A stretch of DNA of 64,000 nt from Nanobdellota archaeon (GCA_018829185.1 JAHJUI010000019.1:5757-69756); one strand, 5' to 3'; counted from the first letter of the stretch, positions 444 through 23,959 are shown. The notes: generated from the sequence alone by a model not told the origin. Made by a program: numbers and translations.

Positions 444-567
444 TGGCCCGGACCGGATTTGAACCGGCGACCTTTATCGGAATTTCTTCTCTCGATGTCT
501 GCCAAGTCTGGTTATCAGTTTCACCCTCAATTGAGTCGAGTGCTCTACCAGGCTAAGCCACCGGGCC
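444..567 (-). tRNA. intron-containing tRNA (124 nt; isotype unresolved, candidate anticodon-loop CTCAATT)
   Basis: Minus-strand read: GGCCCGG-TG-GCTT-AGCCTGGTAG-AGC...GCCGG-TTCAAAT-CCGGT-CCGGGCC-A. Acceptor stem is 7 perfect bp, the D-arm and the T-loop TTCAAAT are canonical, discriminator A is followed by TTTT. Helix CTCGA/TCGAG encloses 41 nt (loop plus roughly 34-nt intron) and 22 nt lie between it and the T-arm, so there is a long insert or a second intron. Confidence 0.7.
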
Positions 568-2732: not shown

Positions 2733-3251
2733 TTAAACCAAGGTTATTTCGATAATCTTTATTTCTTCTAATGGTTTGTCTGCAGAGTCTTTTTCTACTT
2801 TACTTATTGCATCAACTACATCCATTCCTTCGATAACCTCTCCAAAAACTGGATGTTTTGTATCTAAGAAATTATTATTTGCTGTGTTTATGAAAAATTG
2901 ACTTCCGCCAGTGTTTGCACCTGAGTTTGCCATTGAAATTGTTCCTCTCTTATTGCTATTGTGATCTATAAACTCGTCTTCTATGTTGTATCCTGGTCCG
3001 CCCATTCCTGTTCCAGTTGGATCTCCGCCTTGAATCATAAAGTTTTCAATTACTCTGTGGAATATTACTCCATTGTAAAATCCTTCGGAAGCTAATTTTT
3101 TAAAATTTCCTGCTGTGATTGGCATATCATCATGAAGTTTGATTTTTATATCACCCATTGTTGTTTTCATAAGAACTGTGTTTGACATTTTACATCCTCC
3201 CATTGGTAGTATTAAAAGTACTATGCAAATTATTATTAATATGTTTTTCAT
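2733..3251 (-). CDS. peptidyl-prolyl cis-trans isomerase, cyclophilin type (secreted/lipoprotein)
   Basis: FHRVIENFMIQGGDPTGTGMGGPGY and GTISMANSGANTGGSQFFI are cyclophilin signatures. N-terminal signal peptide with Cys (LPMGGC). Confidence 0.85.
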   Translation of the reverse strand: MKNILIIICIVLLILPMGGCKMSNTVLMKTTMGDIKIKLHDDMPITAGNFKKLASEGFYNGVIFHRVIENFMIQGGDPTGTGMGGPGYNIEDEFIDHNSNKRGTISMANSGANTGGSQFFINTANNNFLDTKHPVFGEVIEGMDVVDAISKVEKDSADKPLEEIKIIEITLV

Positions 3252-3320
3252 AGTTTTGTTGAAATTAGTTTTTTTATAAAGTTTATGTTTTTTAATTATT
3301 TTGGAAGAAAAATGATTTAT

Positions 3321-3872
3321 TTATCCGAATAGATTGCTAAGAAATTTCATAAACTTAGTCCATAAACTTCCAGATATACACTCGCTATTAATGCATAAAT
3401 TACTATCGCACTCAAAATTATTATCGCAAACAAAATCTGCTTTTTTCTGAACAATGAACTCTTGTTCATCTGAGCAATAATTACCAGATTTTCTATACCC
3501 AAAAGGGTAACATTTCTTATTCAAAGGGCACCCTTGACAAATTAAAATCTCTTCTTCTTCATCAATGTCTTCAGGGAGTTCAACGGGTTCTTCTTCAGGA
3601 ACTAATTTTATACAAGCTCCATCTTCACAACCATTTGAACATTCAATTGCTTTTATTTGTTGAAAATCATCTTCACAATAATACTCATAGACTTGATTTG
3701 CCATTTGCATCTCGCCACAGTGGTCTTCAAGTTTTTCACCATTCCATAGAATGCTTCCTTTTTTGTAAAAATCTACTCCAGCTTCATTATCAATGCAATC
3801 CTGTGCAGATACAAACACAGCTAAGCTAAGCAAACTTAATATTGCAATTGACAGAATTATTTTTTGTTTCAT
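3321..3872 (-). CDS. secreted cysteine-rich protein, hypothetical
   Basis: Signal peptide (MKQKIILSIAILSLLSLAVFVSA) and more than 20 Cys in CxxC / C-x-C patterns. Confidence 0.4.
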   Translation of the reverse strand: MKQKIILSIAILSLLSLAVFVSAQDCIDNEAGVDFYKKGSILWNGEKLEDHCGEMQMANQVYEYYCEDDFQQIKAIECSNGCEDGACIKLVPEEEPVELPEDIDEEEEILICQGCPLNKKCYPFGYRKSGNYCSDEQEFIVQKKADFVCDNNFECDSNLCINSECISGSLWTKFMKFLSNLFG

Positions 3873-3981
3873 TTTAATATATATAATTGGAAAAGGGTAT
3901 AAAAAGCTTTTTATTTAAGGTAACCAAGATTTTTTATCTTTTTACATTATAGAAAAGCAAAGTTTTTATAAATTTTATGTT

Positions 3982-4827
3982 TTAATTTAATTCTTTTAGT
4001 ATGATTTTTAATTCTTTTTTACCTATTCTTTTTAAATTATGTGTTTCAATTGCATTAACAATTGATTTAATGTATGAATATTCCTTGCTTAGATGCTCTA
4101 AATGTTTTTTATAAATTGATTTTGGTGGTGGCCTAATTAGAGTAAAAATAACTGCTTCTACTAAATTTTCTGCAAAATAACTTTCCCATTCTGAATAATT
4201 TGTATGTTTTTTATATAAATGGGATTTTTCTTCAATTTCATTCTTCATATCTTTAAACAATTTAGTTTGAAAAAAATGAGAAAATTCATGACAAAATATG
4301 TGCTTTATCATATTTTCATATTTGTTAAGTAAGTTAATGGTTATTATATTTTTATTCTTAAACATGTATAGATGTCCACCATTTACAAATGGGTTATTAA
4401 TTATAATCATTCCCCTTGGTTTCTTTATTTTCCAAACTGATGACACTTTAGTTACAAGCGGGAAAATTAATTTTTGATTGTTTTTAATACGATTTTTTTC
4501 TATTGTTTTAATTTTTTTAAATAATAGATCAAAATTATTTCTTTTATAAAATTGTTTAACATAAGGTATAAACTCTTTTGATAATTTAATATCGAATTTA
4601 TCTGTTTTATTTAAAGATTTAACTAATTCAAATGTTTTTAAATTTTTAATTAATAACATATGTCTTACTAACTTTGAATGATGAAAATTTATTTTGTTGG
4701 TTTTAGATATTTTGATAGCTTTACTTACGTATTTGGTTATCTGATTTTTTGGGACTTCATAACCACAAGACATTAATGCAGAATAAGCTAAAACTAATTT
4801 TTTTGAATTTTTGAATAAAATTTTCAC
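3982..4827 (-). CDS. putative HExxH zinc metallopeptidase-like protein
   Basis: FCHEFSHFFQ (HExxH) in the C-terminal half. Otherwise no recognisable family. Confidence 0.35.
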   Translation of the reverse strand: MKILFKNSKKLVLAYSALMSCGYEVPKNQITKYVSKAIKISKTNKINFHHSKLVRHMLLIKNLKTFELVKSLNKTDKFDIKLSKEFIPYVKQFYKRNNFDLLFKKIKTIEKNRIKNNQKLIFPLVTKVSSVWKIKKPRGMIIINNPFVNGGHLYMFKNKNIITINLLNKYENMIKHIFCHEFSHFFQTKLFKDMKNEIEEKSHLYKKHTNYSEWESYFAENLVEAVIFTLIRPPPKSIYKKHLEHLSKEYSYIKSIVNAIETHNLKRIGKKELKIILKELN

Positions 4828-4966
4828 ATAATGGGTTTGATATTTGTTTTTATAAATCTTATGGCAGCCAAGATTTTTTATCTTTTAATTTGTCTGGTAA
4901 GTATTTTGTCATAACATAATTTAATCCATGTTTAGCTAAAGCTTGTTGTTTTTTAAATTTTTTGGT

Positions 4967-5114
4967 TTAACATCGGAATTTAACGGTTCCGAAACCTTGC
5001 AGGTTTCTCCACCCAAATCGCCTTCGGAGACTTCGTTAAATTCCTGTTAGTTTCTTCAGAATACTTGGAAGGATTGATTTTTAGTGCAACGATGCCGTAG
5101 GCAAAAAATCAAAG
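4967..5114. repeat. structured repeat module A, copy 1 (hairpin with ATTTAAC...GTTAAAT ends, then TGTTAGTT and ...GCAAAAAATCAAAG)
   Basis: ttaacatcggaatttaacg [49-nt centre] cgttaaattcctgttagtt ... tagtgcaacgatgccgtaggcaaaaaatcaaag. Related copies at 12742-12941 and 13711-13857. The 11-bp outer stem is ggaatttaacg/cgttaaattcc. Confidence 0.6.
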
Positions 5115-5159
5115 TAATTTCAGGGGCGTATTCAATCAAGCGAACACAGTGAGCAATCA

Positions 5160-5340
5160 AGAATAAGCATCAAGGGGCAATTTTCGTCCGTTCGTCGTTC
5201 GTGGGGGAATTCCGTTTTTTGCTTCTTTTTTTTAAAAAAGAAGATTTTAGAGGGGGCTTTTATTTTGGTTCTTTTTCTAAAAGAACGGGTGGGAGAGAAG
5301 CGAGGGCGGGAAGTTTGGGGCGAGAAAACTATTTTCCGAT
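5160..5340. repeat. repeat module B, copy 1 (GC-richer; palindrome cttcttttttttaaaaaagaag)
   Basis: Inverted, diverged copy of 12543-12735. Shared blocks agttttctcgcccc, aaaagccccctc, cggaattccccc, aaaattgcccc and cccctgaaatt lie in the same order with similar spacing. Confidence 0.5.
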
Positions 5341-5342
5341 AT

Positions 5343-5352
5343 ATTTATAAAT
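5343..5352 (+). promoter_or_regulatory. candidate archaeal TATA box (tttataaata) about 26-35 nt upstream of the 5378 start
   Basis: Identical 10-mer tttataaata also sits at the same spacing upstream of the TBP gene (32974-32983). Confidence 0.35.
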
Positions 5353-5377
5353 ATTTGATTATATTTGTATTAGTAAT

Positions 5378-6292
5378 ATGACAATCTTCAAAAACTCAAC
5401 TAATAAACTCAACAGAATTAAACAATTATCTTTTAAGTTAGAGAAAGAGATTCAAGATTTGACAGAGAAAAATTTAAGTGATATTTTTGGATTACAAATA
5501 GTTAAATCAGAATTTTCTTTAAATGGATTAAGAATAGATACTCTTGCTTATGATAATGAAAATAATAGTTTTGTTATAATTGAATATAAACGAGATAAAA
5601 ATTTTAGTGTTATAGATCAAGGGTATGCTTATCTTTCTTTAATGCTTAATAACAAAGCAGATTTTATTTTGGAATATAATGAGAATTGCGATAGAAATTT
5701 GAAAAGAGAAAATGTTGATTGGTCGCAATCAAGAGTTTTATTTGTTTCTCCTGCTTTTTCAAAATATCAACAACAAGCGATTAATTTTAAGGATTTGCCT
5801 ATTGAATTGTGGGAAATATCAAGATATGAAAATGATTTAATCCAATATACAAGATTAAGGTCGCATGAAAATTCTGAATCAATAAACAAGATAAGTAAGA
5901 AAAGCGATGTTGTTGAAAAAGTAAGCAGTGAAGTAAAAGTTTATACTGAAGAAGACCATTTAAGCCATTGTTCAGAAGAAATTAAATCACTATATAATGA
6001 ATTAAAAAATCAAATTCTATCTATCGATGAAAATATTGAAGTAATTCCAAAAAAGAAATATATTGCGTTTAAATCAGATAGAAATTTTGTAGATATTTTG
6101 CCACAAAAAAGTAAAATAAAGTTTTGGCTTAATTTATCTAAAGGACAGCTTAAAGATGTTGATTCAATCGCAAGAGATGTTTCAAGCGTTGGTCATTGGG
6201 GAAACGGAGATTATGAAGTTTCATTCTCAAATTCTGAAGAATTGCCTGTTTTACTATCATTGATTAAACAAAGTTATGAGAAAAATAAATAG
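5378..6292 (+). CDS. hypothetical protein with N-terminal PD-(D/E)xK-like nuclease fold
   Basis: RIDTLAYD...SFVIIEYKRD gives a D...(E)xK arrangement. The C-terminal ~120 aa (IAFKSDRNFVDILPQKSKIKFW...GHWGNGDYEV) looks like a separate uncharacterised domain. It is the first gene inside the repeat-flanked island. Confidence 0.45.
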   Translation: MTIFKNSTNKLNRIKQLSFKLEKEIQDLTEKNLSDIFGLQIVKSEFSLNGLRIDTLAYDNENNSFVIIEYKRDKNFSVIDQGYAYLSLMLNNKADFILEYNENCDRNLKRENVDWSQSRVLFVSPAFSKYQQQAINFKDLPIELWEISRYENDLIQYTRLRSHENSESINKISKKSDVVEKVSSEVKVYTEEDHLSHCSEEIKSLYNELKNQILSIDENIEVIPKKKYIAFKSDRNFVDILPQKSKIKFWLNLSKGQLKDVDSIARDVSSVGHWGNGDYEVSFSNSEELPVLLSLIKQSYEKNK

Positions 6293-6300
6293 GGGTTAAA

Positions 6301-6450
6301 ATGGATTCAAAAAATATCACATTGCGAGTAAATTCTAAAGTTTATGATAGATACAGAGAACTTTGCAAGAAGAAAGGCTTATTAGTTTCTAGGCAGGTTG
6401 AAATAATGATGGAAGAACAATTAAAAAAAGAGGATGGAAACAATGAGTAA
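6301..6450 (+). CDS. small ribbon-helix-helix (CopG-like) protein, 49 aa (not in ORF track)
   Basis: My translation: MDSKNITLRVNSKVYDRYRELCKKKGLLVSRQVEIMMEEQLKKEDGNNE. A beta-strand (ITLRV) followed by two helices is the RHH pattern. Its stop overlaps the start of the RM gene (ATGAGTAA at 6443-6450). Confidence 0.5.
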   Translation: MDSKNITLRVNSKVYDRYRELCKKKGLLVSRQVEIMMEEQLKKEDGNNE

Positions 6451-9400
6451 AGAAAATTCTCTTTTCAAAGAAGCTACAATTAAAAGATTAGTTTCTAATG
6501 TTAATTTAACTGCTAAACATAAAAAAGCCGTAAACAAATGGTTAGATTATTTTAATAGTGGAAAATTAGAAAATGAAAAACAAGCATATATAGAATTTGC
6601 TAACATCATTCTTAGAGATTTATTAGATTATGACATCAGTCTTGAAGGTCTTAAACACGAAGAAGAAAACATAGAATTTTTATTTAAGAAAGATGGTAAT
6701 AATCTTATTTGTTTTGAAGCAAAAGGAGCAAAGACTAAAGACTTATGGGCTTATCAAGGAAGAGATAAAAAATCAAGAGAAACTCCAGTTAATCAAATAA
6801 ATTCTTATTTGTATGATAAAATAATTCCATTTGGCATTTTAACAAATTATAGATTATTTGTTTTATTTGATCGTAATGAAGGCAGTAAAAAATATCATCT
6901 AATTGATTTTACAGAATTAACTAAAGAAGATAAACTAAAAGAATTTATTGCTCTTTTCTCAAGAGAACAAGTAGAAAAAGGATTTATTACCGAAGTAATC
7001 CAACAATCCATTGTTGAAGAAAGAGAATTTACTAAAGAGTTCTATAAATTATATCACGAAACAAGGTTAATGCTAATTAAAGAATTTGAAGAAAATTCAG
7101 GGATTAGTAGAGAGGCTTCTGTTCATTTTGCACAATTATATCTTAATAGATTAATGTTTGTATTTTTTGCAGAAGATACTGGAAAAATTGATAAGAGAAT
7201 TATAGAAGAGAGGGTTATCAAAACATTAGATAACATTCATCTATTTTCATCAAATTCCTCAAATATTTCCAATGTTTTAGTTGGCTTGTTTAATGACTTG
7301 GATAAAGGAAGTGATTTTCCAGTTAAATTATTTGGGTTTAATGGTGGTTTGTTTAAACATCCAATTCCGCCAAAAATATTTTTTAAAGACTTTAGAGATG
7401 ATAAATTTTTCAAAGATGTAAATCAAAACTCTAAACTAAAGAAGAAAGAATTAGAATTAAACGACAATGAAAAAGAAGTATTTCACAAATACAAAAATAG
7501 GATTAGTCCAGTAATAAAAAATATTTTGATAATGGATTCTTTTGATTTCAATTCTGAAGTTAATGTAAATATTTTAGGTCATATTTTTGAGCAATCTATT
7601 TCCGATATTGAAGATTTGAAGACTGACAAAAGTTCTCGAAGAAAGAAAGAAGGAATATTTTATACTCCTGAATACATTACTGACTACATTTGCAGAAATA
7701 CAATTATAACTTATTTATCTAAGAAAGGAATTAATTCAGTTCCTGAATTAATAAAAGAATATGCTGAGAACATTGAAGAGTTGGAAGAGAAGTTTAAAGC
7801 AATTAAAATATTAGATCCTGCTTGCGGTTCTGGTGCATTCTTGATTAAAGCTACTGATATTATGCTTGAGATTTTCAGAGCAATTCAAGAGTTTAAGCAA
7901 AGCGAAGGAGAATATGAAGCAAAAAAAGGATTAAAAAAGAAAAGCAATGCAAAAGGACAATTAGTATTAGAAAAATGGAATGAAGAAGCAGAAGCAAGAG
8001 AAATAATCGAGAATAGTATTCATGGAGTAGATATTAACGAAGAATCTGTTGAGATAACAAAACTTTCTTTATTCTTAAAGATGGCTAGAAAGAATAGAAA
8101 GCTTACAGATTTATCAAATAATATAAAACAAGGAAACAGCTTAATCAATGATTCAGAAGTTGCAGGAGACTTGGCATTTGACTGGGATAAAGAATTTCCA
8201 TTCAAGTTTGATGTTGTTATTGGGAATCCTCCGTATGTTTTTGCAAGAGAAAAAGTATCTCAAGAAGAAAAAGATTATTATAAAAAATATTATGATTCTG
8301 CTGATTATCAGGTGAACACCTATCTGCTTTTTATCGAAAAAACAATAAGTCTATTAAAAGATAATGGAACTTATGGTTTAATTGTTCCAAATGCTTGGTT
8401 AATGGTTTATTCTGGAAAAGGATTAAGAAAGTGCATATTAGACACTTGTAAATTAAACCAGATAATAAATTTAGAGGGTTTTTCTTTTGATGATGTAAGT
8501 GTTGAAACAATAATTATACTTGCAGAAAAGAAAAAAACTGATAAAAGTACTTTTAAGGTATACTTAAACAATGGAAAAGAGTTCGTATTTTCTCATAAAA
8601 AAAATCAGTCTGAGTTCACTAAAAGTAAAGGTTTTGAATTTAAAATTTTTTCTGATGAAACTAGCACATCATTAACTGAAAAAATAAAGAATGGTTCAGT
8701 TATTCTTGATTCAATTGTACAGATTAAAGCAGGATTGCAAGCATACGAAAAAGGAAAAGGTAATCCCAAGCAATCTGCTAAAGATGTTAAAGAAAGACCA
8801 TATGATTATAATTATAAGTTTGATTTACAAACACACAAATATCTTGATGGTAAGGATGTAGGTAGATATTTTGTTTCTTGGTCTGGACTATATTTAAAAT
8901 ACGGCGAACACTTAGCAGCACCAAGAACTTTTAATTTATTTGATGGTAAGAAAATTATAATCCGAGAAATAACAGGGAGATATCCTAAAAGCATTATTGC
9001 TACATATAGTGAGGAACTATATCTATATAATAGGAGTAATATTGCTATTATTGAGAAAGAAAATAAAAAAATATCATTAAAATATATATTATCTGTTCTT
9101 AACAGTTCTTTAATTTCTTATTACTTTATGAAAAATACTGCAAAGTCGGTTAGAAAGATGTTTCCAAAGGTCATTCTAAAAGATTTACGATTATTTCCGT
9201 TTAAAGAGCTTAATATAGAAGAGCAAAAACCATTTATAGAGAAAGCAGACTTAATGCTAAATCTGAACAAAGAATTCTATGACAAAAAGGATAAATTCTT
9301 CAACAGAATAAAAAAGTCTTTTAATTTAGAAAAATTAAACAAGAAACTTGATTCTTTCTATGAATTGGAATTTAATGATTTTGTTAAAGAAATTGAAAAA

Positions 9401-9589
9401 TTAAGCAAAAAGAAACTTTCATTAAAAGAACAAGACGAATGGGAAGATTACTTCAATGAATATAAAAAAGATTTATCAAATTTAAAGAACAATATTGAAA
9501 AAACTGACAACGAAATTAATCAGATGGTTTACAAACTATATGGTTTATCTAAAGAGGAGATACAGATAATTAAGGAGAGTTTGAGATGA
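6434..9589 (+). CDS. type IIG restriction-modification enzyme (N-terminal PD-ExK endonuclease, gamma-class N6-adenine methyltransferase, C-terminal target-recognition region)
   Basis: LLDYD...ICFEAKGAKTKD (D...EXK) at the N-terminus. ILDPACGSGAFL (SAM motif I) and VVIGNPPYVFAR (motif IV, NPPY) in gamma order. About 450 aa follow the NPPY motif, enough for a TRD. Size of 1051 aa fits MmeI/Eco57I-like single-chain enzymes. Confidence 0.8.
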   Translation: METMSKENSLFKEATIKRLVSNVNLTAKHKKAVNKWLDYFNSGKLENEKQAYIEFANIILRDLLDYDISLEGLKHEEENIEFLFKKDGNNLICFEAKGAKTKDLWAYQGRDKKSRETPVNQINSYLYDKIIPFGILTNYRLFVLFDRNEGSKKYHLIDFTELTKEDKLKEFIALFSREQVEKGFITEVIQQSIVEEREFTKEFYKLYHETRLMLIKEFEENSGISREASVHFAQLYLNRLMFVFFAEDTGKIDKRIIEERVIKTLDNIHLFSSNSSNISNVLVGLFNDLDKGSDFPVKLFGFNGGLFKHPIPPKIFFKDFRDDKFFKDVNQNSKLKKKELELNDNEKEVFHKYKNRISPVIKNILIMDSFDFNSEVNVNILGHIFEQSISDIEDLKTDKSSRRKKEGIFYTPEYITDYICRNTIITYLSKKGINSVPELIKEYAENIEELEEKFKAIKILDPACGSGAFLIKATDIMLEIFRAIQEFKQSEGEYEAKKGLKKKSNAKGQLVLEKWNEEAEAREIIENSIHGVDINEESVEITKLSLFLKMARKNRKLTDLSNNIKQGNSLINDSEVAGDLAFDWDKEFPFKFDVVIGNPPYVFAREKVSQEEKDYYKKYYDSADYQVNTYLLFIEKTISLLKDNGTYGLIVPNAWLMVYSGKGLRKCILDTCKLNQIINLEGFSFDDVSVETIIILAEKKKTDKSTFKVYLNNGKEFVFSHKKNQSEFTKSKGFEFKIFSDETSTSLTEKIKNGSVILDSIVQIKAGLQAYEKGKGNPKQSAKDVKERPYDYNYKFDLQTHKYLDGKDVGRYFVSWSGLYLKYGEHLAAPRTFNLFDGKKIIIREITGRYPKSIIATYSEELYLYNRSNIAIIEKENKKISLKYILSVLNSSLISYYFMKNTAKSVRKMFPKVILKDLRLFPFKELNIEEQKPFIEKADLMLNLNKEFYDKKDKFFNRIKKSFNLEKLNKKLDSFYELEFNDFVKEIEKLSKKKLSLKEQDEWEDYFNEYKKDLSNLKNNIEKTDNEINQMVYKLYGLSKEEIQIIKESLR

Positions 9590-10320
9590 ATCAGGATATT
9601 TCTCAAAAAATATTTCAGCAAGCAATAGATTTATGGATTAAACCTGAAATGGATAAAAGAAAATCTTTGAAAAGATTGCCAAAAGATTTTAAATTAAGAA
9701 GTGCTCAAATATTGTTTTCTTTGGATAGAGGTTGGAATAAGGTAAGGCTTAATGAAGAAGTTAAAGCAGTTGCTAAATGCAAAATCAATTGTGCAAAAAA
9801 TAAAGGAGATGCAATTTATGAAAAGGATATAGATGAAATTGAATCTATTAATCTAACTGAAAAAGATCCAAATTGTGCGCATATCACTTTATTATTATTT
9901 AAGAATAATTGGGTAATTTCATTTGATTTTGCATATAATAAGAAAAGAATTAAAGAGCATATAGATGTAGCTAAAGAATTTTTTGAGAGTGCCAAAGATA
10001 ATCTAGAAAAGAAGAGATTAAGACCATTTTTTGAAAATTCTTTTGCTTGTGCAGAACTTTCAGCAAAGGCTGTTTTACTTCAATTGCCAGATAAAGAGAT
10101 TTTACAAGGTAAGGATCATTCAACGAGAATTAATAAGTTTAAAAACTGGGCTAGTTTAGGCAATGTTAAACAAGAGCATTCAGAGATATTAGAAAGACTG
10201 AATCAACTCAGATCTTCTGCAAGATATTTATGTTCTACTGAATTTAAGAAAGAAAAACCAAAAGAGATTATATCTAAATTAAGCGAAATGATAAATTTTG
10301 CAGAGAGTAGGATAAAATGA
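9586..10320 (+). CDS. hypothetical protein, all-alpha C-terminal half (RM-linked)
   Basis: ATGA overlap with the RM gene at 9586-9589. No catalytic motif is confidently recognised. The C-terminal region (SAKAVLLQLPDKEILQGKDHSTRINKF) is helical. Confidence 0.45.
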   Translation: MNQDISQKIFQQAIDLWIKPEMDKRKSLKRLPKDFKLRSAQILFSLDRGWNKVRLNEEVKAVAKCKINCAKNKGDAIYEKDIDEIESINLTEKDPNCAHITLLLFKNNWVISFDFAYNKKRIKEHIDVAKEFFESAKDNLEKKRLRPFFENSFACAELSAKAVLLQLPDKEILQGKDHSTRINKFKNWASLGNVKQEHSEILERLNQLRSSARYLCSTEFKKEKPKEIISKLSEMINFAESRIK

Positions 10321-11099
10321 GTGATTTTCAACAAGTAAAAAATGTGGCAAAGAATTTTGTTAAAGAAAATAAAGAGTTTTTTGATAGATTTGAGAATGAA
10401 ATTGATGATTTGACTATTGGCAATTATTTTGATTTGTATTTGGGTAGTAAGGGAATCACTGCATTGAACACTGAAACAGAATTTGATAAGATGTATGATG
10501 ATGCTTTAGAAAAATTTCATAATGATAAAGAAAATTTACAAGATATAGAAAAATTGTTAATAGAGTTTCTTGATTTCTTAGTTTGGTTAAAAAAACAACA
10601 GGTCATTTTTAATGTTGACATTTCTGAACGTAAACAGTTACATAAAAATGCACTAGAGTATTCCAACACAATTAATAGAATTTATTTGAACAAAAATCTG
10701 GATGGAAAAGATAAGATTGAGATTTTGCTATTTTATTATTGTTCTCTTCAAGAGATATTTAAGAATGTTGTTCAAGAAGAACTGCTTTTGAATATTTGGA
10801 AACAAGGAAAAACTGATGTTTGTGATTTAAGAAAGAAACATATACAATTAGGTGATTTCAAAAATATAATTGAGAAATATGAAAAAAATAACAAACTATC
10901 GGATGGAATAAATAAGATATTTGATGTTGAATTAAGGAATAAAACACTTCATGCTGATTATTCTGTTAATAATGATGAAATTAAATATGGTTCAAAAAGT
11001 TTAAAAATAACTGATTTACAAAATAAAATAATTAAATTAGGAGTAAGTTTGCAGTTTTTTGTTTTATTTTACCTAAGACTATTTAAGGAATCTGATTAA
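10317..11099 (+). CDS. putative HEPN-domain protein (RNxxxH motif), Abi-like
   Basis: DVELRNKTLHADYSVN carries R-N-x3-H, the HEPN RNase signature as in the AbiD/AbiF (Abi_2)-type families. ATGA overlap with the upstream gene at 10317-10320. Confidence 0.5.
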   Translation: MSDFQQVKNVAKNFVKENKEFFDRFENEIDDLTIGNYFDLYLGSKGITALNTETEFDKMYDDALEKFHNDKENLQDIEKLLIEFLDFLVWLKKQQVIFNVDISERKQLHKNALEYSNTINRIYLNKNLDGKDKIEILLFYYCSLQEIFKNVVQEELLLNIWKQGKTDVCDLRKKHIQLGDFKNIIEKYEKNNKLSDGINKIFDVELRNKTLHADYSVNNDEIKYGSKSLKITDLQNKIIKLGVSLQFFVLFYLRLFKESD

Positions 11100-11100
11100 A

Positions 11101-12543
11101 ATGGCTCATCTCCTGACTAAATCTAAATATATGCAAGGACAACAATGTCTTAGATTATTATGGCTTTCTACAAATAAACTTCTTCCTGAAAAAACTATTG
11201 CTGAAAAGCAAAAGCTTGAACAAGGGCATGAATTTGAAGAATATGCTCATAAATTATTTCCTGATGCTGTAAATCTTGCTGAATTGGGATTCAATGAAAA
11301 TTTAGAAAAAACTAAAGAGTTAATAGAACAGAAAAAGATAATTTTTGAAGCAGGATTAAAAGTTGATGATATGTTTTTGAGAGCTGATGTTTTAGAGCCA
11401 ACAGAAAACGGCTGGAATCTATATGAGATTAAAGCATCCACAAAACAAAAACCTGAACATATCCCTGATTTAGCTTTTCAAAAATTTGTTTGTGAAAAAG
11501 CAGGATTAAACATAGAAAAAAGCTTTGTCTTACACTTAAATAAAGAGTTTATCAAAAATGGAAAGATAAACTCTAAAGAATTATCAACAATAGAAGAAGT
11601 TACTGAAAAAGTAAATCTTATTGATGATGTTGAGAATAATTCTAAATTATATCTTGAAATAATGAATTCAAAAGAAAAGCCTGAAATTTTAATCTCTAAA
11701 AACTGCAATTCCCCATATCCCTGTGCTGTTAAAAAAGATTGTTGGGGAACTTTACCAAAAAATAATGTTTTGCATTTGACAAATTGGAGAGTTTATTGGA
11801 ATCTTTTTGATGATGGAATTATTGACTTAAAAGATGTCCCAAAAGGCACAAAACTAACTCCAAAGGATGAAATCATCTTAGAAGGAGAAACCCAAGAAAA
11901 AATAATGATTTCAAAAGAACATATTAAACATTTTCTGAATTCTTTAAAATATCCTCTTTGTCATTTGGATTTTGAAACTTTTGATACTGCTGTTCCGATT
12001 TTTGATAAATCAAGACCATGGCAAAAAATGCCATTTCAGTATTCTGTTCATATTCAGCCAGAAAATGGAGAAATTATTCATTATGAATATTTAGCTGAAG
12101 ATGGAGAAGATCCAAGACCTAAACTTCTTGAAAATCTAAAAGAACATGCAAAAGGTTCAGGAAGTGTTATAGTTTTTAATAAATCATTTGAAATAAATGT
12201 CTTAAACAAATTAGCAGAAGATTTTCCAGAGCATAAAGATTGGATTCAAAATGTTTTAGACAGAATTATAGATTTAGCTTTTCCATTTCAAAGTTTTTAT
12301 TATTATAATCCATCTCAAAAAGGAAGTTATTCAATAAAGAAAGTCTTACCAGCAATTACTGGAAAAGGGTATACTGGCTTAGAAATTGGGAATGGTGGAG
12401 ATGCAAGTGCATTATATTTTTACAGCCATGTAAAAAAAGAGATTGATGGAAAAGAAGATATAAGAAAAAATCTCTTGAAATATTGTTGTTTAGATACAGA
12501 AGGAATGGTTTGGATTATTGATGAATTAAGGAAGTTAGTTTGA
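11101..12543 (+). CDS. Cas4/RecB-like PD-(D/E)xK nuclease with Cys cluster, fused to a DEDDy-type 3'-5' exonuclease domain (DUF2779-like architecture)
   Basis: N-terminal half: GQQCLRLLW (first Cys), RADVLEP...NLYEIKASTK (D...ExK), AFQKF, CNSPYPCAVKKDC (C-x5-C-x5-C). C-terminal half: LDFETFD (exo I, DxE), VIVFNKSFEINVL (exo II-like), YCCLDTEGM (exo III, YxxxD). It starts 1 nt after the upstream stop. Confidence 0.6.
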   Translation: MAHLLTKSKYMQGQQCLRLLWLSTNKLLPEKTIAEKQKLEQGHEFEEYAHKLFPDAVNLAELGFNENLEKTKELIEQKKIIFEAGLKVDDMFLRADVLEPTENGWNLYEIKASTKQKPEHIPDLAFQKFVCEKAGLNIEKSFVLHLNKEFIKNGKINSKELSTIEEVTEKVNLIDDVENNSKLYLEIMNSKEKPEILISKNCNSPYPCAVKKDCWGTLPKNNVLHLTNWRVYWNLFDDGIIDLKDVPKGTKLTPKDEIILEGETQEKIMISKEHIKHFLNSLKYPLCHLDFETFDTAVPIFDKSRPWQKMPFQYSVHIQPENGEIIHYEYLAEDGEDPRPKLLENLKEHAKGSGSVIVFNKSFEINVLNKLAEDFPEHKDWIQNVLDRIIDLAFPFQSFYYYNPSQKGSYSIKKVLPAITGKGYTGLEIGNGGDASALYFYSHVKKEIDGKEDIRKNLLKYCCLDTEGMVWIIDELRKLV

Positions 12544-12735
12544 GTTTTCTCGCCCCCTCTATAAAAATATCGAACGAAGTGAGTGAAAATGTCCGAAGGA
12601 CTAAAAGCCCCCTCGTTATATTATTTCTTTTTCCGCAGAAAAAGGCACTCTGTCCGTAGGACTCGGAATTCCCCCCGTCGTTTTCGTTTTTAGTTCGTTT
12701 AGTTAAAATTGCCCCCTTCGTTAGCCCCTGAAATT
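12543..12735. repeat. repeat module B, copy 2 (inverted relative to 5160-5340)
   Basis: See 5160-5340. The reverse complement of copy 1 aligns block by block and the copy ends with cccctgaaatt. Confidence 0.5.
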
Positions 12736-12741
12736 ATTGAG

Positions 12742-12941
12742 TTTAACATCGGAATTTAACGAAGTTGAATTTTGAGAGCTGGAGAGAGCCGAGGCAAACC
12801 ACGGCGAGCGACCTCCAAAATTCAATTTGGGTGGAGAAACTTGCAAGGTTTCGGAACCGTTAAATTCCTGTTAGTTGCGTCGGAGCGTAGCGGAGACCGA
12901 GGGATAGTGCAACGATTTTTGCGAAGCAAAAAATCACGAAG
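12742..12941. repeat. structured repeat module A, copy 2 (same outer ends as copy 1; central ~97 nt inverted and expanded)
   Basis: tttaacatcggaatttaacg [centre] cgttaaattcctgttagtt...gcaaaaaatcacgaag. The centre contains atttgggtggagaaacttgcaaggtttcggaacc, the reverse complement of the copy-1 centre ggttccgaaaccttgcaggtttctccacccaaat. Confidence 0.6.
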
Positions 12942-12949
12942 AGTAAGTT

Positions 12950-13660
12950 TTAAGCGGTTGTAACTTTTAATATCTGTTTAACAAAGTAGTCTGGCTCTCG
13001 TTTTCCTCTATAAGCGGGATGTGGTCCAATATAAATAGACTTTCCCATATCTAACAACCTCTTTAATAAAAATTTTTTGTATTTGAAAGAATTGCTCTGA
13101 AATACAATTATATTTGGATTGAAGATTTTGACTTCTTCAATGAAAAAATTTAGTTCAATCTTTTGATCTTGGTGAATTCTATTTTCTCCACCTGTTCTCT
13201 TTTTTCTATTTATTGAAACAAATTTGTAATAGTTTGTTAAAGCAATATAAGATAATGGATTAATTGGAGGTAATTTTTCTTGATATTGCAGTGCTTTCTG
13301 ACAAGATAATATATTTTTGAGGTTGTTCCAATAATTCTGCAAATTAAGATCATCTTTTAGAAAAAATATTGCAGTAAAATATGTTCCTGCGATATGAGGA
13401 TTATGTTTTGATACTGGTTTTTCTTCTATTGCTTGTCTTCTTTCTTCAAAAGATTGAATTCCTCCAATTTTTTCATCTGAACCTATATCTAATCCGACAA
13501 TTAAAATCTTCTTAGAGTTACCATAGTTTGAACCAACATATGGGAAAGTCGGAAATTTAATTCGAGGACTGTTTTTTAAGCATCCAGTTTTTTTATCTAT
13601 ATCAAATTTCTTAAATAAATCTTGATACTCATTTTTTAACTCAGATTGTATCATAATCAA
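12950..13660 (-). CDS. hypothetical protein (weak resemblance to the UDG-superfamily motif pattern)
   Basis: KILIVGLDIGSDE resembles UDG family-4 motif A (h-V-G-E-x-P-G-x-x-E) and GPHPAYRG resembles motif B (HPSP). The resemblance is weak. It sits alone between repeat copies A2 and A3. Confidence 0.35.
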   Translation of the reverse strand: MIMIQSELKNEYQDLFKKFDIDKKTGCLKNSPRIKFPTFPYVGSNYGNSKKILIVGLDIGSDEKIGGIQSFEERRQAIEEKPVSKHNPHIAGTYFTAIFFLKDDLNLQNYWNNLKNILSCQKALQYQEKLPPINPLSYIALTNYYKFVSINRKKRTGGENRIHQDQKIELNFFIEEVKIFNPNIIVFQSNSFKYKKFLLKRLLDMGKSIYIGPHPAYRGKREPDYFVKQILKVTTA

Positions 13661-13710
13661 TTAAACGAGAACCAGACTTTATAATTTTACCGCTTAAAAC
13701 TTATTGCAAC

Positions 13711-13857
13711 TAACATCGGCATTAACAGAAGTCGGCGTAGCCGATTTGGACGAAGAAGTCTGCAAGACTTCGTAGTCTGTTAATGCCTGTTAGTTTCTCC
13801 CGAATACTTGGAGGGATTGATTTTTAGTGCAACGATGCCAAAGGCAAAAAATCAAAG
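13711..13857. repeat. structured repeat module A, copy 3 (covarying stem cattaacag/ctgttaatg)
   Basis: taacatcggcattaacag [centre] ctgttaatgcctgttagtt...tagtgcaacgatgccaaaggcaaaaaatcaaag. The outer stem sequence differs from copies 1 and 2 but stays complementary. The inner hairpin gaagtc-TGCAA-gacttc corresponds to gaaacc-TTGCA-ggtttc. Confidence 0.6.
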
Positions 13858-14050
13858 TTGCAAATTCTCGTTCATATGATTGAGAGGACACTTTAGGACG
13901 GTGGGTTCCGTCTGTAAAACCTATTAAATAATAGAAATTGTTGTTGTATTTTGTCTTGTGAGCCGCCGCCTTTTTTGCTTCTTTTTTTCTAAAAAAGAAG
14001 AGGGGGAGTTTCCGCTCCATCTAAGGAATAAAACACCGCGTAAGGAACAA
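13858..14050. repeat. repeat module B, copy 3
   Basis: Shares ttttttgcttctttttttctaaaaaagaaga..ggggg with copy 1. An inverted copy lies at 18540-18700 with shared blocks ttgcaaattctc, gagaggacacttta (14/14), agaaattgttgt and gtgagccgcc. Confidence 0.45.
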
Positions 14051-14095
14051 TAATGGAAGTTTTGAGTTCTAAATTCATATTTCCTTCTTGCCCAG

Positions 14096-14422
14096 ATGTG
14101 CAACATAAAAAGATTTAAAAAGAACCAAGTAAATATATTTATTATGCCTGATGAAAAAATTGCCAGAGCAATAAAAGCAAAAGTAAGAAGAGAAATGTTA
14201 CAGATACTTTGTCAAAAGGAAAAAATACCTGTTCATGAAATAGCAAATAAATTGAACATAACAGAGTCTTCTGCATCCAAACATTTGAAATTATTGTATG
14301 ATTTAGGTTTTGTAGATTTTGAAGAGAAACATCCAGAAAAATTTTATTTTCTTAAAATAAAAGAAATTAGAGAGCTATTTCAGGTCTATAATAAAATTAT
14401 CAAAAAATTAAGAGGTAAATGA
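14096..14422 (+). CDS. ArsR/TrmB-type winged-HTH transcriptional regulator
   Basis: VHEIANKLNITESSASKHLKLLYDLGFV is an HTH. ATGA overlap with the RuBisCO start at 14419-14422. Confidence 0.55.
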   Translation: MCNIKRFKKNQVNIFIMPDEKIARAIKAKVRREMLQILCQKEKIPVHEIANKLNITESSASKHLKLLYDLGFVDFEEKHPEKFYFLKIKEIRELFQVYNKIIKKLRGK

Positions 14423-15888
14423 AAATGAAAAAAGAACATAAACAATTGCTTAAAACACTTAATGAAAAACAACAAGCTTATGTAAACTTGAACTTGCCTG
14501 ACCCAAAAAATGGCGAGTATCTTCTTACAGTCTTTCATTTAGTTCCAAACGAAAAATTAAATATTTTACAAGCAGCTACAGAAGTTGCAGCAGAATCTTC
14601 TACTGGAACAACCTTTAAGGTGCAGACAGAAACCCCTTTTTCCAGAGAAATGAATGCTCTTGTTTATCAACTTGATTTAAAGAAAAATCTTGTATGGATT
14701 GCTTATCCTTGGAGGCTTTTTGACAGGGGAGGAAATGTGCAGAATATTTTGACATATATTGTTGGGAATGTTTTGGGAATGAAAAAAATAAATACTTTAA
14801 AATTATTAGATGTGTGGTTTTCTCCAGTAATGCTTGAGCAGTATGATGGGCCAAGTTATACAATAGATGATATGAGAAAATATTTGGATGTATATGACAG
14901 GCCTATTCTTGGAACCATTGTAAAGCCAAAAATGGGACTTACTTCTGCTGAATATGCAGAGGTGGCTTATGATTTCTGGGCAGGGGGTGGAGATTTTGTT
15001 AAAAATGATGAACCACAAGCAAATCAGGATTTTTGCCCATACGACAAAATGGTAAGATATGTAAAAAAAGCTATGGATAAAGCTGTCAAAGAAACTGGAA
15101 AGAAAAAAGTTCACTCTTTTAATGTTTCAGCAGCTGATTTTGATACTATGATTAAAAGATGTGAAATGATTAGAAATGCAGGTTTTGAACCAGGAAGTTA
15201 TGCGTTCTTAATTGATGGAATCACTGCTGGTTGGACAGCAGTGCAAACTCTTAGAAGAAGATATCCAGACGTATTTATTCACTTTCATAGAGCAGGTCAT
15301 GGAGGGTTTACAAGACCAGAAAATCCAATGGGATTCACAGTTTTGGTTCTGTCTAAATTTGCAAGATTAGCCGGAGTTTCAGGAATTCATACTGGAACTG
15401 CAGGTGTTGGAAAAATGTCTGGAAAGCCAGAAGAAGATGTTGTAGCTGCGCACAATATTTTAAGTTACATAGCAAAAGGACATTTTTTTGAGCAAAGCTG
15501 GGGAAAGATTCCTGAAAAAGATGAAGATGCTTCGAAGCTCGTTCATGAAGATGCAATTCACCATCTTATTTTAGAAGATGACAGCTGGAGAGGAATGAAA
15601 AAATGCTGTCCTATTATCTCTGGAGGATTAAATCCAATGTTATTGAAGCCGTTTATTGATATAATGAATAATACTGATTTTATTACAACAATGGGGGCAG
15701 GTGTTCATGCTCATCCAAGAGGGACTAAAGCTGGTGCAACTGCATTGGTTCAGGCATGCGAAGCTTATCTTAAAAAAATAGATATCAAAGAATATGCTAA
15801 AGACCATCCTGAATTAGCTGAAGCTATCAAGTTTTTTTCAAAAAAACCAAAGGATGTGGAAGTAGCTGAGGAAACTGAAAAGAGTTAA
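14419..15888 (+). CDS. rbcL: ribulose-1,5-bisphosphate carboxylase, large subunit, type III (archaeal)
   Basis: GGGDFVKNDEPQ (GxDFxKxDE), TIVKPKMGLT (carbamylated-Lys region), FIHFHRAGHGG (HRA.H) and the C-terminal GGL..M.. pattern. No small-subunit gene nearby, consistent with form III. Confidence 0.85.
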   Translation: MKMKKEHKQLLKTLNEKQQAYVNLNLPDPKNGEYLLTVFHLVPNEKLNILQAATEVAAESSTGTTFKVQTETPFSREMNALVYQLDLKKNLVWIAYPWRLFDRGGNVQNILTYIVGNVLGMKKINTLKLLDVWFSPVMLEQYDGPSYTIDDMRKYLDVYDRPILGTIVKPKMGLTSAEYAEVAYDFWAGGGDFVKNDEPQANQDFCPYDKMVRYVKKAMDKAVKETGKKKVHSFNVSAADFDTMIKRCEMIRNAGFEPGSYAFLIDGITAGWTAVQTLRRRYPDVFIHFHRAGHGGFTRPENPMGFTVLVLSKFARLAGVSGIHTGTAGVGKMSGKPEEDVVAAHNILSYIAKGHFFEQSWGKIPEKDEDASKLVHEDAIHHLILEDDSWRGMKKCCPIISGGLNPMLLKPFIDIMNNTDFITTMGAGVHAHPRGTKAGATALVQACEAYLKKIDIKEYAKDHPELAEAIKFFSKKPKDVEVAEETEKS

Positions 15889-15930
15889 TAACAAGATCAA
15901 GTTTTCATAGTTCTTCTTTTTTCTTTATAA

Positions 15931-16482
15931 TTGGTGTTAAGAATGAAAAAAGCAATATTTTTAGACAGAGACGGAACATTAATTGAAGATAGTGGTTATG
16001 CTTATAGAATAGAAGATTTAAAAATTTATCCTGGCGTTGTTGAAGGCCTAAAATTATTACAAAACGATTATTTGTTTTTTATTATAACAAACCAATCAGG
16101 AATTGGAAAAGGGTTCTACACAACAAAAGACTTTCATAGATTTAACAATTCTCTTTTAGAACAATTGAGAAACCAAAATATAAGAATAGAAAGAACATAT
16201 TTTTGTCCGCATATTGGTGATTGTAAGTGTAAAAAACCAAGTACAAAATACATAGAAGAAATTGTTTCTGAGTATAGTATTGATTTAGTAGAATCGTGGG
16301 TTATTGGAGATCATCCCTCTGATATTATTATGGGTAAAAATGCTGGTTGCAAAACAGCATACCTTCTTTCAGGGCATGGCACAAAACATTTTCAAGAGCT
16401 TGAATTAAAAAGAATAAAACCAACAATTATTACAGAAGATTTTTTATCTACTGCTAAATCTATTAGAGAATATGAAAACTAA
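15931..16482 (+). CDS. HAD-superfamily phosphatase, GmhB / histidinol-phosphatase-like
   Basis: AIFLDRDGTLIED (DxDGT motif I), IITNQSG (motif II), CPHIGDCKCKKP (GmhB-type Zn site), GDHPSD (motif IV). Confidence 0.65.
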   Translation: MVLRMKKAIFLDRDGTLIEDSGYAYRIEDLKIYPGVVEGLKLLQNDYLFFIITNQSGIGKGFYTTKDFHRFNNSLLEQLRNQNIRIERTYFCPHIGDCKCKKPSTKYIEEIVSEYSIDLVESWVIGDHPSDIIMGKNAGCKTAYLLSGHGTKHFQELELKRIKPTIITEDFLSTAKSIREYEN

Positions 16483-17512: not shown

Positions 17513-17547
17513 AATAAATATAGGGGTGTTAAATATTAATATGCAAA

Positions 17548-18426: not shown

Positions 18427-18539
18427 TAAAACAGAAAAATTTGCGTGTAATGAAATGAAACCTTTTATCCTAGGTTATGCGAAATTTTAATTTCGTGAGT
18501 TTTTTCTTGGTCGGATAAAAGAAGTTTTTCTGTGAGGAC

Positions 18540-18700: not shown

Positions 18701-18743
18701 TTATATAGATAAATTTATATATAATTTAGTTATATAAGGATGT

Positions 18744-19562: not shown

Positions 19563-19607
19563 TTTCATCATTGTGACAAGTGCGCACGCAGAGTTTATAA
19601 AGTCTTT

Positions 19608-23958: not shown

Positions 23959-23959
23959 A

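Follow-up and report, generated by a model that had tools for sequence, protein, structure and literature searches.

A probable integron-like, XerA-linked array of three gene cassettes in a Nanobdellota archaeon

Gene cassettes and their boundaries upstream of xerA

In the 64-kb stretch of DNA analysed here (the window), which derives from a Nanobdellota archaeon (DPANN), positions 4971-18696 comprise three gene cassettes stacked upstream of xerA, a gene for an archaeal XerA-type tyrosine recombinase (18744-19562, + strand). Cassette 1 carries a defence island on the + strand (5378-12543), delineated from ORFs and domain matches, that encodes a PDC-S18/DUF5655 protein (5378-6292), a type IIG restriction-modification (RM) protein (6434-9589), a HEPN protein (9586-10320), an unknown ORF (10317-11099) and a DUF2779/Cas4-like protein (11101-12543). 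The initial annotation listed six island genes of defence-like character; that character is borne out by the domain matches, while the sixth gene is only a 49-aa call (about 6301-6450), leaving the total at five to six. Cassette 2 holds one ORF without a family match on the - strand (12950-13660; ORF236, for which an exact-protein look-up returned no record), and cassette 3 encodes ArsR (14096-14422), form III RuBisCO (14419-15888), HAD (15931-16482), Sua5 (16472-17512) and metallophosphoesterase (17548-18426) proteins. Cassettes can be multi-gene and reach 7.8 kb, with cargo in either orientation relative to the repeated element that separates them.

This element, designated A, is a structured unit of about 160 nt with an attC-like hairpin (P1) and two further hairpins, P2 and P3, the last with the bulge AGTGCAACGAT. 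Its copies lie at about 4964-5115, 12736-12944 and 13703-13858, and a covariance model run with filters off recovered exactly these three in 64 kb, all on the + strand and within 9 kb. The body of A1 (4971-5115, with P1 at 4969-5049 and an 11-nt P3 bulge) scores 94.6 bits against model R1 and is further defined by covariation and fold; A2 (12736-12944) is a type II variant scoring 30.3 bits, and A3 (13703-13858) a type I copy scoring 100.1 bits. Each of the anchors TAACATCGG, CCTGTTAGTT and TAGTGCAACGAT likewise occurs three times in the window, on the + strand every time. Spacings are 7.8, 0.9 and 4.9 kb here, in one orientation, and 0.15-7.4 kb at other loci. A permuted A-like element lies inside cassette 3 (~18440-18560).

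The A modules had previously been read as two inverted copies closing the island from either side. They are instead direct repeats, and that reading overlooked A3 as well as the half-site at 18686-18697. P1 is near-palindromic, and its interior is flipped in A1, where it adopts the 'flop' orientation, relative to A2, A3 and most relatives; together these two features produce the apparent inversion (44 nt, 98%). Direct repetition of A is the geometry expected for site-specific excision and integration; of the two modules, only B is a terminal inverted repeat.

The inverted B repeat itself is confirmed. Its motifs AATTTCAGGGGC, (A/G)GGGGCAATTTT, GGGGGAATTCC, GAGGGGGCTTTT and GGGGCGAGAAAACT each have exactly two occurrences in the window, collinear and on opposite strands (5116-5330, +, and 12543-12735, -), with intervening spacers unequal in length and sequence. 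As initially noted, the repeats are GC-richer than their surroundings (0.36-0.46 vs 0.19-0.30) and the last island stop at 12543 abuts the right copy. B1, the left terminal inverted repeat (TIR) of cassette 1 (5115-5330, +), shares its first base, a T, with the last base of A1, and is followed by a TATA-like box at about 5340-5353; B2', the right TIR (12543-12735, -), ends one base before the ATTG of A2. The two share the 13-nt exact inverted match TAATTTCAGGGGC at offsets of -1/-1. The central part of B2' has a close homolog upstream of an A element at another locus (L026).

The same arrangement recurs in the other two cassettes. Cassette 2 and its TIRs occupy 12944-13702, with TAAGTTTTAAGCGGT at 12944-12958, its complement at 13688-13702 (a 15-nt exact inverted match, offsets -1/-1) and a second pair further inward, whereas the TIRs of cassette 3 (13858-18685) lie at about 13858-13950 and about 18592-18685, begin with TTGCAAATTCTC and contain a 12-nt exact inverted match, again at -1/-1. 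In many cassettes, including all three here, the TIRs span from the last base of one A to the first base of the next, flanked by the ...AG and TTG... of A. An exact inverted match of at least 12 nt was found at the ends of 10 of 18 evaluable cassettes, seven of them in perfect register, while 4% of controls reached 9 nt. The remaining eight cassettes have no terminal inverted repeat, possibly owing to undetected A variants between model matches. TIR sequences are cassette-specific; what is conserved instead is their complementarity and their exact register with A. A general rule that reversed B modules precede A was considered and rejected, as GGG runs dominate the strand of A on both of its sides.

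Conservation, fold and strand polarity of element A

A genome scan for A returned 78 matches, 77 of which are A copies, nearly all in DPANN metagenome-assembled genomes (MAGs); the scan was an exact match to 22 nt, which are therefore invariant across the 77 copies by selection. No match was found in the viral contigs scanned. Type II relatives were present at 14 further loci beyond the window. Wherever a locus has at least two A copies they lie on a single strand, as seen at 19 scan loci (including L036), in the window and at two more loci (L085 and L091).

The hairpins are strongly supported by covariation, which indicates that the fold is under selection. In P2 and P3, 96.4% of cells pair, and compensatory changes are seen at 11 of the 16 pairs; in the P1 stem the values are 98%, a percentage inflated by the selection of partners for complementarity, and 8 of 11. 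Within the window, the P1 stem of A3 (GGCATTAACAG/CTGTTAATGCC) is compensatory relative to those of A1 and A2. RNAalifold gave no structure on a mixed alignment of types I and II, and structures were then supplied by hand on type-specific alignments. P1 reads, in order, R'' (xxxTAAC), a 5-nt spacer, L'', a variable tip, L', a spacer and R' (GTTAGxx). This layout resembles that of published attC sites from archaea and bacteria, which are imperfect hairpins of the form R''(RYYYAAC)-L''...L'-R'(GTTRRRY) with an unpaired spacer and extrahelical bases. AAC/GTT cores are present in P1, its L stem covaries and it has a TC bulge; its spacer lengths and L-box sequence differ from those of published attCs. 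A P1 detector that allowed one mismatch gave 9 matches per shuffled 64 kb and was too noisy, so only zero-mismatch matches were used.

At paired positions in A, G.T outnumbers A.C by 39 to 9, and the loops are mostly C-GNA-G and T-GCA-A triloops, with only three GNRA and zero UNCG loops. The G.T excess and the triloops may be read as the signature of a single-stranded, DNA-like fold, with loop statistics that would be compatible with RNA too. A could be a family of structured noncoding RNAs or a cis-regulatory RNA, with the inverted repeats bringing the 5' end of a cassette transcript into pairing with its 3' end, in the manner of archaeal processing stems, and both the covariation with its G.U-type strand bias and the G-rich modules found after A, on its strand, in 45 of 54 informative cases are compatible with such a role. 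We nevertheless regard an RNA as quite improbable. Rfam returned zero matches at the gathering threshold for the window and 20 loci, and zero at E<=1 in 4700-14300; no conserved promoter precedes A, because the variable inverted repeat abuts it directly; B1 precedes both the TATA box and the leaderless start of the island and would therefore fall outside its mRNA; the triloops are of the GNA rather than the GNRA or UNCG kind; and cargo genes run in both directions relative to A. Nor would an RNA explain the strain breakpoints and the linkage to xerA described below. Other candidate identities did not hold: adjacency to rRNA or tRNA genes was rejected after checking 20 loci, and an ORB-like replication origin and a K-turn/L7Ae motif were dropped, as the motifs are not conserved across variants and orc1/cdc6 is not adjacent.

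GC-rich hairpins in an AT-rich genome, built from modules that recur in varied combinations and at which assemblies break, also recall a mosaic of selfish or regulatory palindromes such as BIME/REP elements or the GC clusters of yeast mitochondria, turned over by homologous recombination in a variable and perhaps terminus-proximal region, with xerA a mere neighbour. The initial annotation had itself allowed that the repeats might be generic terminators or REP-like elements. However, A occurs only three times in 64 kb, in one array; its strand polarity is strict, it lies on one side of xerA only, the half-site there holds a fixed position, TIRs that differ by cassette and keep exact register with A are foreign to BIMEs, and the covariation implies a selected fold. 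We consider a mosaic of this kind unlikely.

Linkage to xerA and replacement between strains

The 272-aa XerA protein passes the NF040815 model (recomb_XerA_Arch; 260.7 bits, cut-off 220) and falls below the cut-off of the integron integrase model TIGR02249 (238.5 bits against 265, in two separate stretches), and its best PDB matches are XerA structures (5hxy and 4a8e). It is a XerA-type recombinase without the IntI-specific domain. Xer homologs were found at eight scan loci and at the sister-strain locus L084, each downstream of A and on the same strand. Reciprocally, among eight xerA-centred loci picked by sequence length only, A-type elements are present upstream, on the xerA strand, in five of the six with upstream sequence and downstream of xerA in none; the other two contigs stop 49 and 169 nt upstream of the gene.

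Between the array and xerA lies a short site, X (18686-18735, +; ATTGTAACTAA^CAAGTTATATAG...), whose motif ATTG-N4-TAAC occurs in about 15 of 17 loci, against a background of 0.26 per 220 nt, and in eight loci (seven by scan, L037 by eye) stands at exactly -58 relative to the start of xerA. AT-rich palindromes follow the motif, with arms not conserved between genomes, and no dif-like duplex site was recognised in A. The position of X as the recombinase-proximal half-site suggests that it is an attI-like insertion site beside the recombinase gene. At the opposite end of the array stands an outer chromosomal half-site, GGTTTAA (4964-4970, +), which lacks the ATTG found at the internal sites in the P1 comparison. 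Crossover would fall at TAA^C throughout: at 4970|4971 on the left end, at 12746|12747 in A2, where the first 11 nt (ATTGAGTTTAA) would belong to cassette 1 and the remainder to cassette 2, at 13713|13714 in A3 and at 18696|18697 in X.

These same sites mark a difference between strains. In the sister strain represented by L084, whose flanks are 98-99.8% identical to the window, positions 4986-18684 are replaced by two small cassettes, both likewise with TIRs adjoining A. Flank identity ends at GGTTTAA with divergence within A1, and the left breakpoint falls in the P1 hairpin of A1; the right one falls in the X half-site, where the N4 differs and the sequence is identical from TAAC onward. A further locus, L095, represents a third variant, and three same-species contigs (L080, L081 and L083) are identical to the window. 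L084 lacks the island, and the polymorphic unit is the whole 13.7-kb array (4986-18684), not 5.3-12.6 kb; the opposite prospect, relatives with the same genes and no repeats, was not encountered. This is the one informative strain polymorphism found, and because the swap involves all the cassettes at once, the L084 state could also have arisen by homologous recombination, or by replacement, between conserved flanks. No circle-junction or empty-site read that would attest excision directly was recovered, and L036, considered as an excised circle, was rejected as such on finding that its two ends are different A copies.

The island had been described as a transposon-like or recombination-delivered cargo element. 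Delivery by recombination, bounding repeats and the lack of an internal transposase all hold, and the geometry of a TIR transposon does not. Non-autonomous TIR transposons, with cargo between inverted repeats, moved in trans by a transposase from another locus and targeted to A boundaries, would account for the many cassettes bounded by perfect 12-16-nt TIRs with longer imperfect extensions and for an island without a recombinase inside. Transposases recognise conserved ends, however, and here the TIR sequences vary by cassette while complementarity and the A register are conserved instead. A target-site duplication outside 4967 or 12941 is not visible (left flank ...AAATTTTTTGG, right flank AAGTTTTAAGCGG...), the island proteins contain no transposase domain and no transposase lies near the array within the 64-kb window; these points together with the cassette-specific TIRs leave a classical TIR transposon unsupported. 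The strain breakpoints moreover fall in A and X, away from the TIR tips, and transposition would leave both the consistent polarity of A and its linkage to xerA without an explanation. On balance such transposons are an improbable source of the array.

A possible cassette platform in DPANN archaea

Taken at the level of this locus, window 4971-18696 is probably an integron-like, XerA-linked array of three cassettes in which the defence island is cassette 1 and B1 and B2' are its inverted-repeat pair. More tentatively, archaea of the Woese-, Pace-, Nano- and Aenigmarchaeota type may harbour an undescribed XerA-run analogue of the integron, in which a composite site of ~160 nt together with the TIRs turns one DNA strand into a four-way junction, one arm of which is attC-like, and with which strains swap defence systems and form III RuBisCO operons. 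A literature search for this architecture found no description.

Each cassette consists, in order, of an A body, an inverted repeat peculiar to that cassette, a cargo that brings its own promoters, the complementary partner of the repeat and ATTG-N4-TAA; the array is anchored directly upstream of the xerA promoter. In the proposed platform, excision and insertion would proceed by site-specific recombination at TAA^C, at the base of P1, following the AAC/GTT core logic of integron attC and attI, with XerA as the putative catalyst and the folded single-stranded + strand as its candidate substrate. Half-site X, 48-58 nt upstream of xerA, would be the point of entry for new cassettes. Within an excised circle, a reconstituted A would lie between the two inverted repeats, which would zip into a long stem and leave A as a four-way junction with its attC-like hairpin; the predicted folds of the hypothetical circle junctions take this form of a stem plus A, with 89, 40 and 62 inter-arm pairs (the last for cassette 3). 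Alternatively, the inverted repeats might draw two flanking A sites together in single-stranded DNA. This cassette model assigns no role to the conserved P2 and P3 hairpins or to the reversal of the P1 interior in A1, and XerA may perhaps be only a housekeeping dimer resolvase beside a variable region.

Sedentary chromosomal integrons and CALINs resemble the array in several respects: a tyrosine recombinase gene transcribed away from a same-orientation array with a half-site beside that gene, cassette sites that form imperfect hairpins, with AAC...GTT boxes that do not vary, inner stems that covary, bulged bases and a tip that differs in length, an implied strand-specific folding, and rapid turnover between strains of cassettes with defence-related or unknown cargo. 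The IntI-specific domain, which reads the extrahelical bases of attC, is missing from the XerA-type recombinase here, and the hairpin is one arm of a ~160-nt element with two more hairpins and an invariant 11-nt bulge. Integron cassettes are mostly promoterless, single-ORF and expressed from Pc, whereas those described here can be multi-gene (up to 7.8 kb), lie in either orientation, have their own TATA boxes and carry TIRs of 12-200 nt adjoining the sites. An ordinary archaeal integron or CALIN, with P1 a canonical attC and a true IntI encoded elsewhere, would fit the layout of P1, which is like that of published attC sites including one from Nanoarchaeota, and CALINs are known from Pacearchaeales and Woesearchaeales (Ghaly et al. 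2022, PMC9668308). Even so, it is very unlikely: the recombinase next to the array scores below the cut-off for integron integrases and above that of the XerA equivalog, P1 forms part of a larger conserved element (P2/P3) and is accompanied by cassette TIRs, both absent from integrons, and two of the three spacings (7.8 and 4.9 kb) exceed the CALIN criterion of at least two sites in one orientation less than 4 kb apart (PMC9668308). The A motifs are also absent from the supplementary sequences of that study that were searched.

Elements that exploit Xer recombinases offer a second comparison. As in IMEX such as CTX-phi and in the pdif modules of Acinetobacter, a host Xer recombinase would insert and shuffle integrase-less modules in tandem at one site, and CTX-phi integrates as a folded single-stranded hairpin (attP). 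Dif-like sites are 28 bp long, with 11-bp arms and a 6-bp spacer, but no such 11-6-11 duplex site was recognised here, where each site is a long structured element; the sites at the two ends of a pdif module point in opposite directions, in contrast to the direct repeats of this array. The platform described here is also located at the xerA promoter, and the dif sites of Thermococcales do not adjoin xerA (PMC2958812). REP/BIME and pneumococcal BOX elements are similarly modular, GC-rich, hairpin-forming and intergenic; they are dispersed genome-wide, without gene cassettes or a fixed polarity relative to a recombinase gene, unlike the one array in 64 kb found here. Tycheposon-type islands of Prochlorococcus reportedly hold tandem cargo modules at a hotspot with repeated attachment sequences, many without an integrase, and their repeats are said to be partial tRNA genes created by integration. 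Each cassette here has instead a complete, individually diverged structured site and its own TIRs.

Little is understood of how DPANN archaea, which are host-dependent and have tiny genomes, gain and rearrange their accessory genes. The A element provides a ready marker for locating further arrays of this kind, and A arrays explain the recurrent assembly break beside xerA in DPANN MAGs. If the proposed platform is real, it would give these organisms an integron-like route to fast gene turnover, encompassing defence genes, RM systems and a RuBisCO operon. It would also mean that attC-type recombination of folded DNA can dispense with the IntI-specific domain or use some other accessory structure, and would inform the question of how integron integrases arose from Xer-like ancestors.

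The defence island is one cassette of a strain-variable array

The RM/defence island that the initial annotation described as bracketed by terminal inverted repeats is the first cassette of a three-cassette array anchored on a XerA-type tyrosine recombinase gene (xerA, 18744-19562, +), and this array differs wholesale between near-identical strains. The gene content of the island is as originally described, with PDC-S18/DUF5655, type IIG RM, HEPN and DUF2779/Cas4-like genes together with an uncharacterized ORF, the final stop codon ending at 12543. The inverted-repeat reading is correct for the inner modules, B1 (5116-5330, +) and B2' (12543-12735, -), in which five G-rich motifs, each occurring exactly twice in the 64-kb window, lie in the same order on opposite strands, separated by spacers of unequal length in the two copies. 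It does not hold for the outer modules, copies of a structured element of about 160 nt (A). For each of its three anchors (TAACATCGG, CCTGTTAGTT and TAGTGCAACGAT) the window has three occurrences, invariably on the + strand, which gives the copies A1 (~4964-5115; type I), A2 (12736-12944; type II) and a third copy, A3 (13703-13858; type I). A1 and A2 share a 44-nt, 98% "inverted" match because hairpin P1 of the element is long and near-palindromic and its interior is flipped in A1. The same P1 interior orientation, opposite to that of about 40 other copies, is seen at 4986-5033 in A1 and in locus L042, with the flanking parts of A remaining direct. Nor is A a generic operon-end element, the alternative that the initial annotation had raised, since a covariance model of A (R1) run with filters off recovers only three copies in the whole window.

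Contigs of the same strain are identical to the window. The sister-strain metagenome contig L084 matches it at 98.8% over 3963-4985 and at 98.3% over 18685-24039, with the intervening 13.7 kb (4986-18684) exchanged for 1.15 kb in which an A-type element stands in front of both of the small ORFs present. The predicted presence/absence polymorphism is thus borne out for the island, but the polymorphic unit is the whole 4986-18684 stretch rather than 5.3-12.6 kb, as the second cassette's ORF236 and the ArsR-RuBisCO-HAD-Sua5-phosphoesterase genes are missing together with the island. The left breakpoint lies inside the A1 hairpin, identity extending through GGTTTAACATCGG, and the right breakpoint falls in X, a half-site upstream of xerA (ATTGTAACTAAC in the window versus ATTGAATATAAC in L084, identical from TAACAAGTTATATAG on). 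Breakpoints at these places are consistent with crossover at TAA^C, which would delimit cassettes C1 (4971-12746), C2 (12747-13713) and C3 (13714-18696). Unusually, A1 has no ATTG, which would be expected were the outer half-site of the chromosome to make up its first bases. Locus L095 represents a third variant and is divergent upstream of 18586. Outside the array, L084 is also missing a 660-bp segment (3303-3962) that holds an ORF for a Cys-rich, signal-peptide-like protein of 183 aa (3321-3872), with an alignment overlap of ~35 nt at its bounds.

The window itself has a GC content of ~29% and encodes a form III RuBisCO, and its relatives are DPANN MAGs. Rfam matches to tRNA at 444-567 (-) and 29568-29662 (+), of 124 and 95 nt where the model has 71 nt and missed at both places by ARAGORN in bacterial mode, are probably intron-containing archaeal tRNA genes.

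Fold and distribution of element A

Element A is a widespread selected fold outside Rfam, a search of which returned no matching family. An exact-pattern search, run on a single genome for each species, yielded 78 loci, from which L003 was rejected as a chance match in bacterial coding sequence. The remaining 77 belong nearly all to Woese-, Pace-, Nano-, Aenigm- or Nanohaloarchaeota MAGs, of which a few are probably mis-binned. The layout begins with ATTG-N4-TAACA-TC-[stem ... variable tip ... stem]-CC-TGTTAGTT, which includes a TC bulge, and continues through hairpin P2 and hairpin P3, the latter carrying an invariant 5' bulge AGTGCAACGA(T), to a terminal AGT. Across 42 type I sequences, 96.4% of P2/P3 cells pair and 11 of the 16 pairs show compensatory changes, a number equalled in none of 500 shuffles; in the inner stem of P1, whose partners were picked by complementarity, 98% of cells pair and compensatory changes occur in 8 of its 11 pairs. 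Paired positions contain 39 G.T but 9 A.C combinations, and therefore one strand is the folding strand. The loops of 160 hairpins are mainly C-GNA-G and T-GCA-A triloops, GNRA occurring only three times and UNCG never. Such GNA/GCA triloops are a mark of stable DNA mini-hairpins, for example d(GCGAAGC), and not of structured RNA. Type II is represented by A2 (...GGGATAGTGCAACGATTTTTGCGAAGCAAAAAATCCCGAAGAGT), and a third, more divergent type ("TGTTATAC") is without the P3 bulge motif. A conserved, circularly permuted A-like element, in the order 3' half of P1 plus (T)GTTATGC, hairpin, TCGGATAAAAGAAGT (the 5' half of P1), lies upstream of xerA at 18440-18560 in the window, at ~5290-5400 in L051 and at ~3700-3800 in L054.

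Polarity, xerA linkage and cassette ends

Every locus with at least two copies of A carries them on the same strand, without exception (19 scan loci together with the window, L085 and L091). NF040815 identifies the ORF downstream of the array as an archaeal XerA equivalog (score 260.7, cut-off 220); an integron-integrase model stays below its own cut-off and matches in two separate stretches, and the protein accordingly lacks the IntI-specific domain. XerA homologs were found in eight pattern-derived loci and L084, invariably downstream of A and on its strand. The linkage is also seen reciprocally at eight loci centred on XerA homologs of 51-75% identity and selected solely because their contigs are long. 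Six of these have usable sequence upstream, and in five (L085, L086, L087, L089 and L091) A-type elements lie upstream of xerA and on its strand, at least five copies in the case of L091. None has one within 10 kb downstream. In two large contigs the sequence upstream of xerA ends after 49 and 169 nt. Directly upstream of xerA is X, ATTG-N4-TAAC followed by an AT-rich palindrome, which stands precisely at -58 in eight loci and elsewhere within 150 nt in the majority of the others, against a background of 0.26 per 220 nt. L088, with X and no upstream A, may be an empty platform.

Directly downstream of xerA is a free-standing LAGLIDADG-type ORF (19608-20645, +, 345 aa) with intein/homing-endonuclease-like matches, kept in L084, L093 and L094. 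In L030, a XerA homolog reduced to its C-terminal catalytic half (3041-3472; residues 123-271) stands directly downstream of A and may represent a truncated or disrupted xerA. Independent assemblies break within A or just upstream of xerA (the end of L082 at window 5004, the starts of L079 and L094 at window 13797 and 18725, the starts of L090 and L092, and both ends of L036), and the contigs that carry XerA homologs are in many cases just 1-5 kb long; these break points are likely a systematic cause of DPANN MAG fragmentation at this locus.

Comparison of the sequence right after each A with that right before the next revealed cassette-specific inverted repeats running from the last base of one A (AG|T...) to the first base of the next (...A|TTG): TAATTTCAGGGGC in C1, which is the B1/B2' pair, TAAGTTTTAAGCGGT in C2 and TTGCAAATTCTC in C3, where the right member ends at X. 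These repeats are general to the arrays, with comparable pairs in L016, L025, L027, L040, L054, L057 and L065 and in both L084 cassettes (TTTTGGCTTGGCTTTT and TATTTTTAATGGC). An exact match of at least 12 nt is present in 10 of 18 evaluable cassettes, seven in perfect register, while 4% of mismatched controls reach 9 nt; cassettes that fail the rule may hold undetected A variants between model matches. Imperfect extension carries the repeats to 60-215 nt. As their sequence varies while complementarity and register are kept, they behave as a helix and not as a protein-binding end sequence. DNA-parameter folding of modelled circle junctions (IR'-A-IR, closed at TAA^C) gives a long stem closing A in a four-way junction, with 89 inter-arm pairs in C1, 40 in C2 and 62 in C3.

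Relation to integrons and possible mobility of the cargo

Published attC sites read xxxTAAC, 5-nt spacer, L'', variable tip, L', spacer, GTTAGxx (PMC9668308 Data S9), and P1 resembles the aligned sites in layout, although its spacers and L boxes are unlike theirs. Viewed from xerA outward, the arrays further resemble integrons in a recombinase gene whose transcription is directed away from the array, in the half-site beside this gene, and in [cargo-site] units whose sites each have the G^TT/AA^C core at their distal end. They differ in having a XerA-type recombinase that lacks the IntI domain and a hairpin set within a larger conserved element, and in cassettes that bear their own terminal inverted repeats and are large, self-promoted and in either orientation. 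Archaeal integrons and CALINs are known, including in Pacearchaeales and Woesearchaeales (PMC9668308); A motifs were not found in the supplementary sequences compared from that study, a result that does not separate those CALINs from these arrays. The dif sites of Thermococcales do not adjoin xerA (PMC2958812), and literature searches found no published description of the present architecture. We propose that XerA would catalyze cassette recombination, cleaving at TAA^C in sites that fold as a single strand, by way of a circular cassette intermediate; the empty site after cassette loss would read GGTTTAA^CAAGTTATATAG. This model offers no explanation for P2/P3 and the invariant bulge, for the interior of P1 being flipped in A1 and L042, or for the permuted element at 18440-18560.

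The cargo extends beyond the island. In Aenigmarchaeota MAG L087, the cassette nearest xerA, between a divergent A and X, is a two-gene RM system (7256-9863; N6/N4 methyltransferase and XcyI-like endonuclease), a second defence cassette in such arrays. The form III RuBisCO large-subunit gene (14419-15888) lies with ArsR, HAD, Sua5 and phosphoesterase genes in the repeat-bounded cassette 3 (13714-18696), missing from L084, and an RbcL 82% identical adjoins A in an Aenigmarchaeota MAG (L047, 6750-8000), which suggests that RuBisCO travels as cassette cargo. A PDC-S18 homolog in L062 (1440-2600) is 84% identical and shares its promoter and final B sub-module (Bm4-Bm5) with the window gene; before it stand a type II A and outer modules unlike those of the island, and its genomic surroundings are unrelated. 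This suggests that cassettes or cassette modules recombine between arrays.
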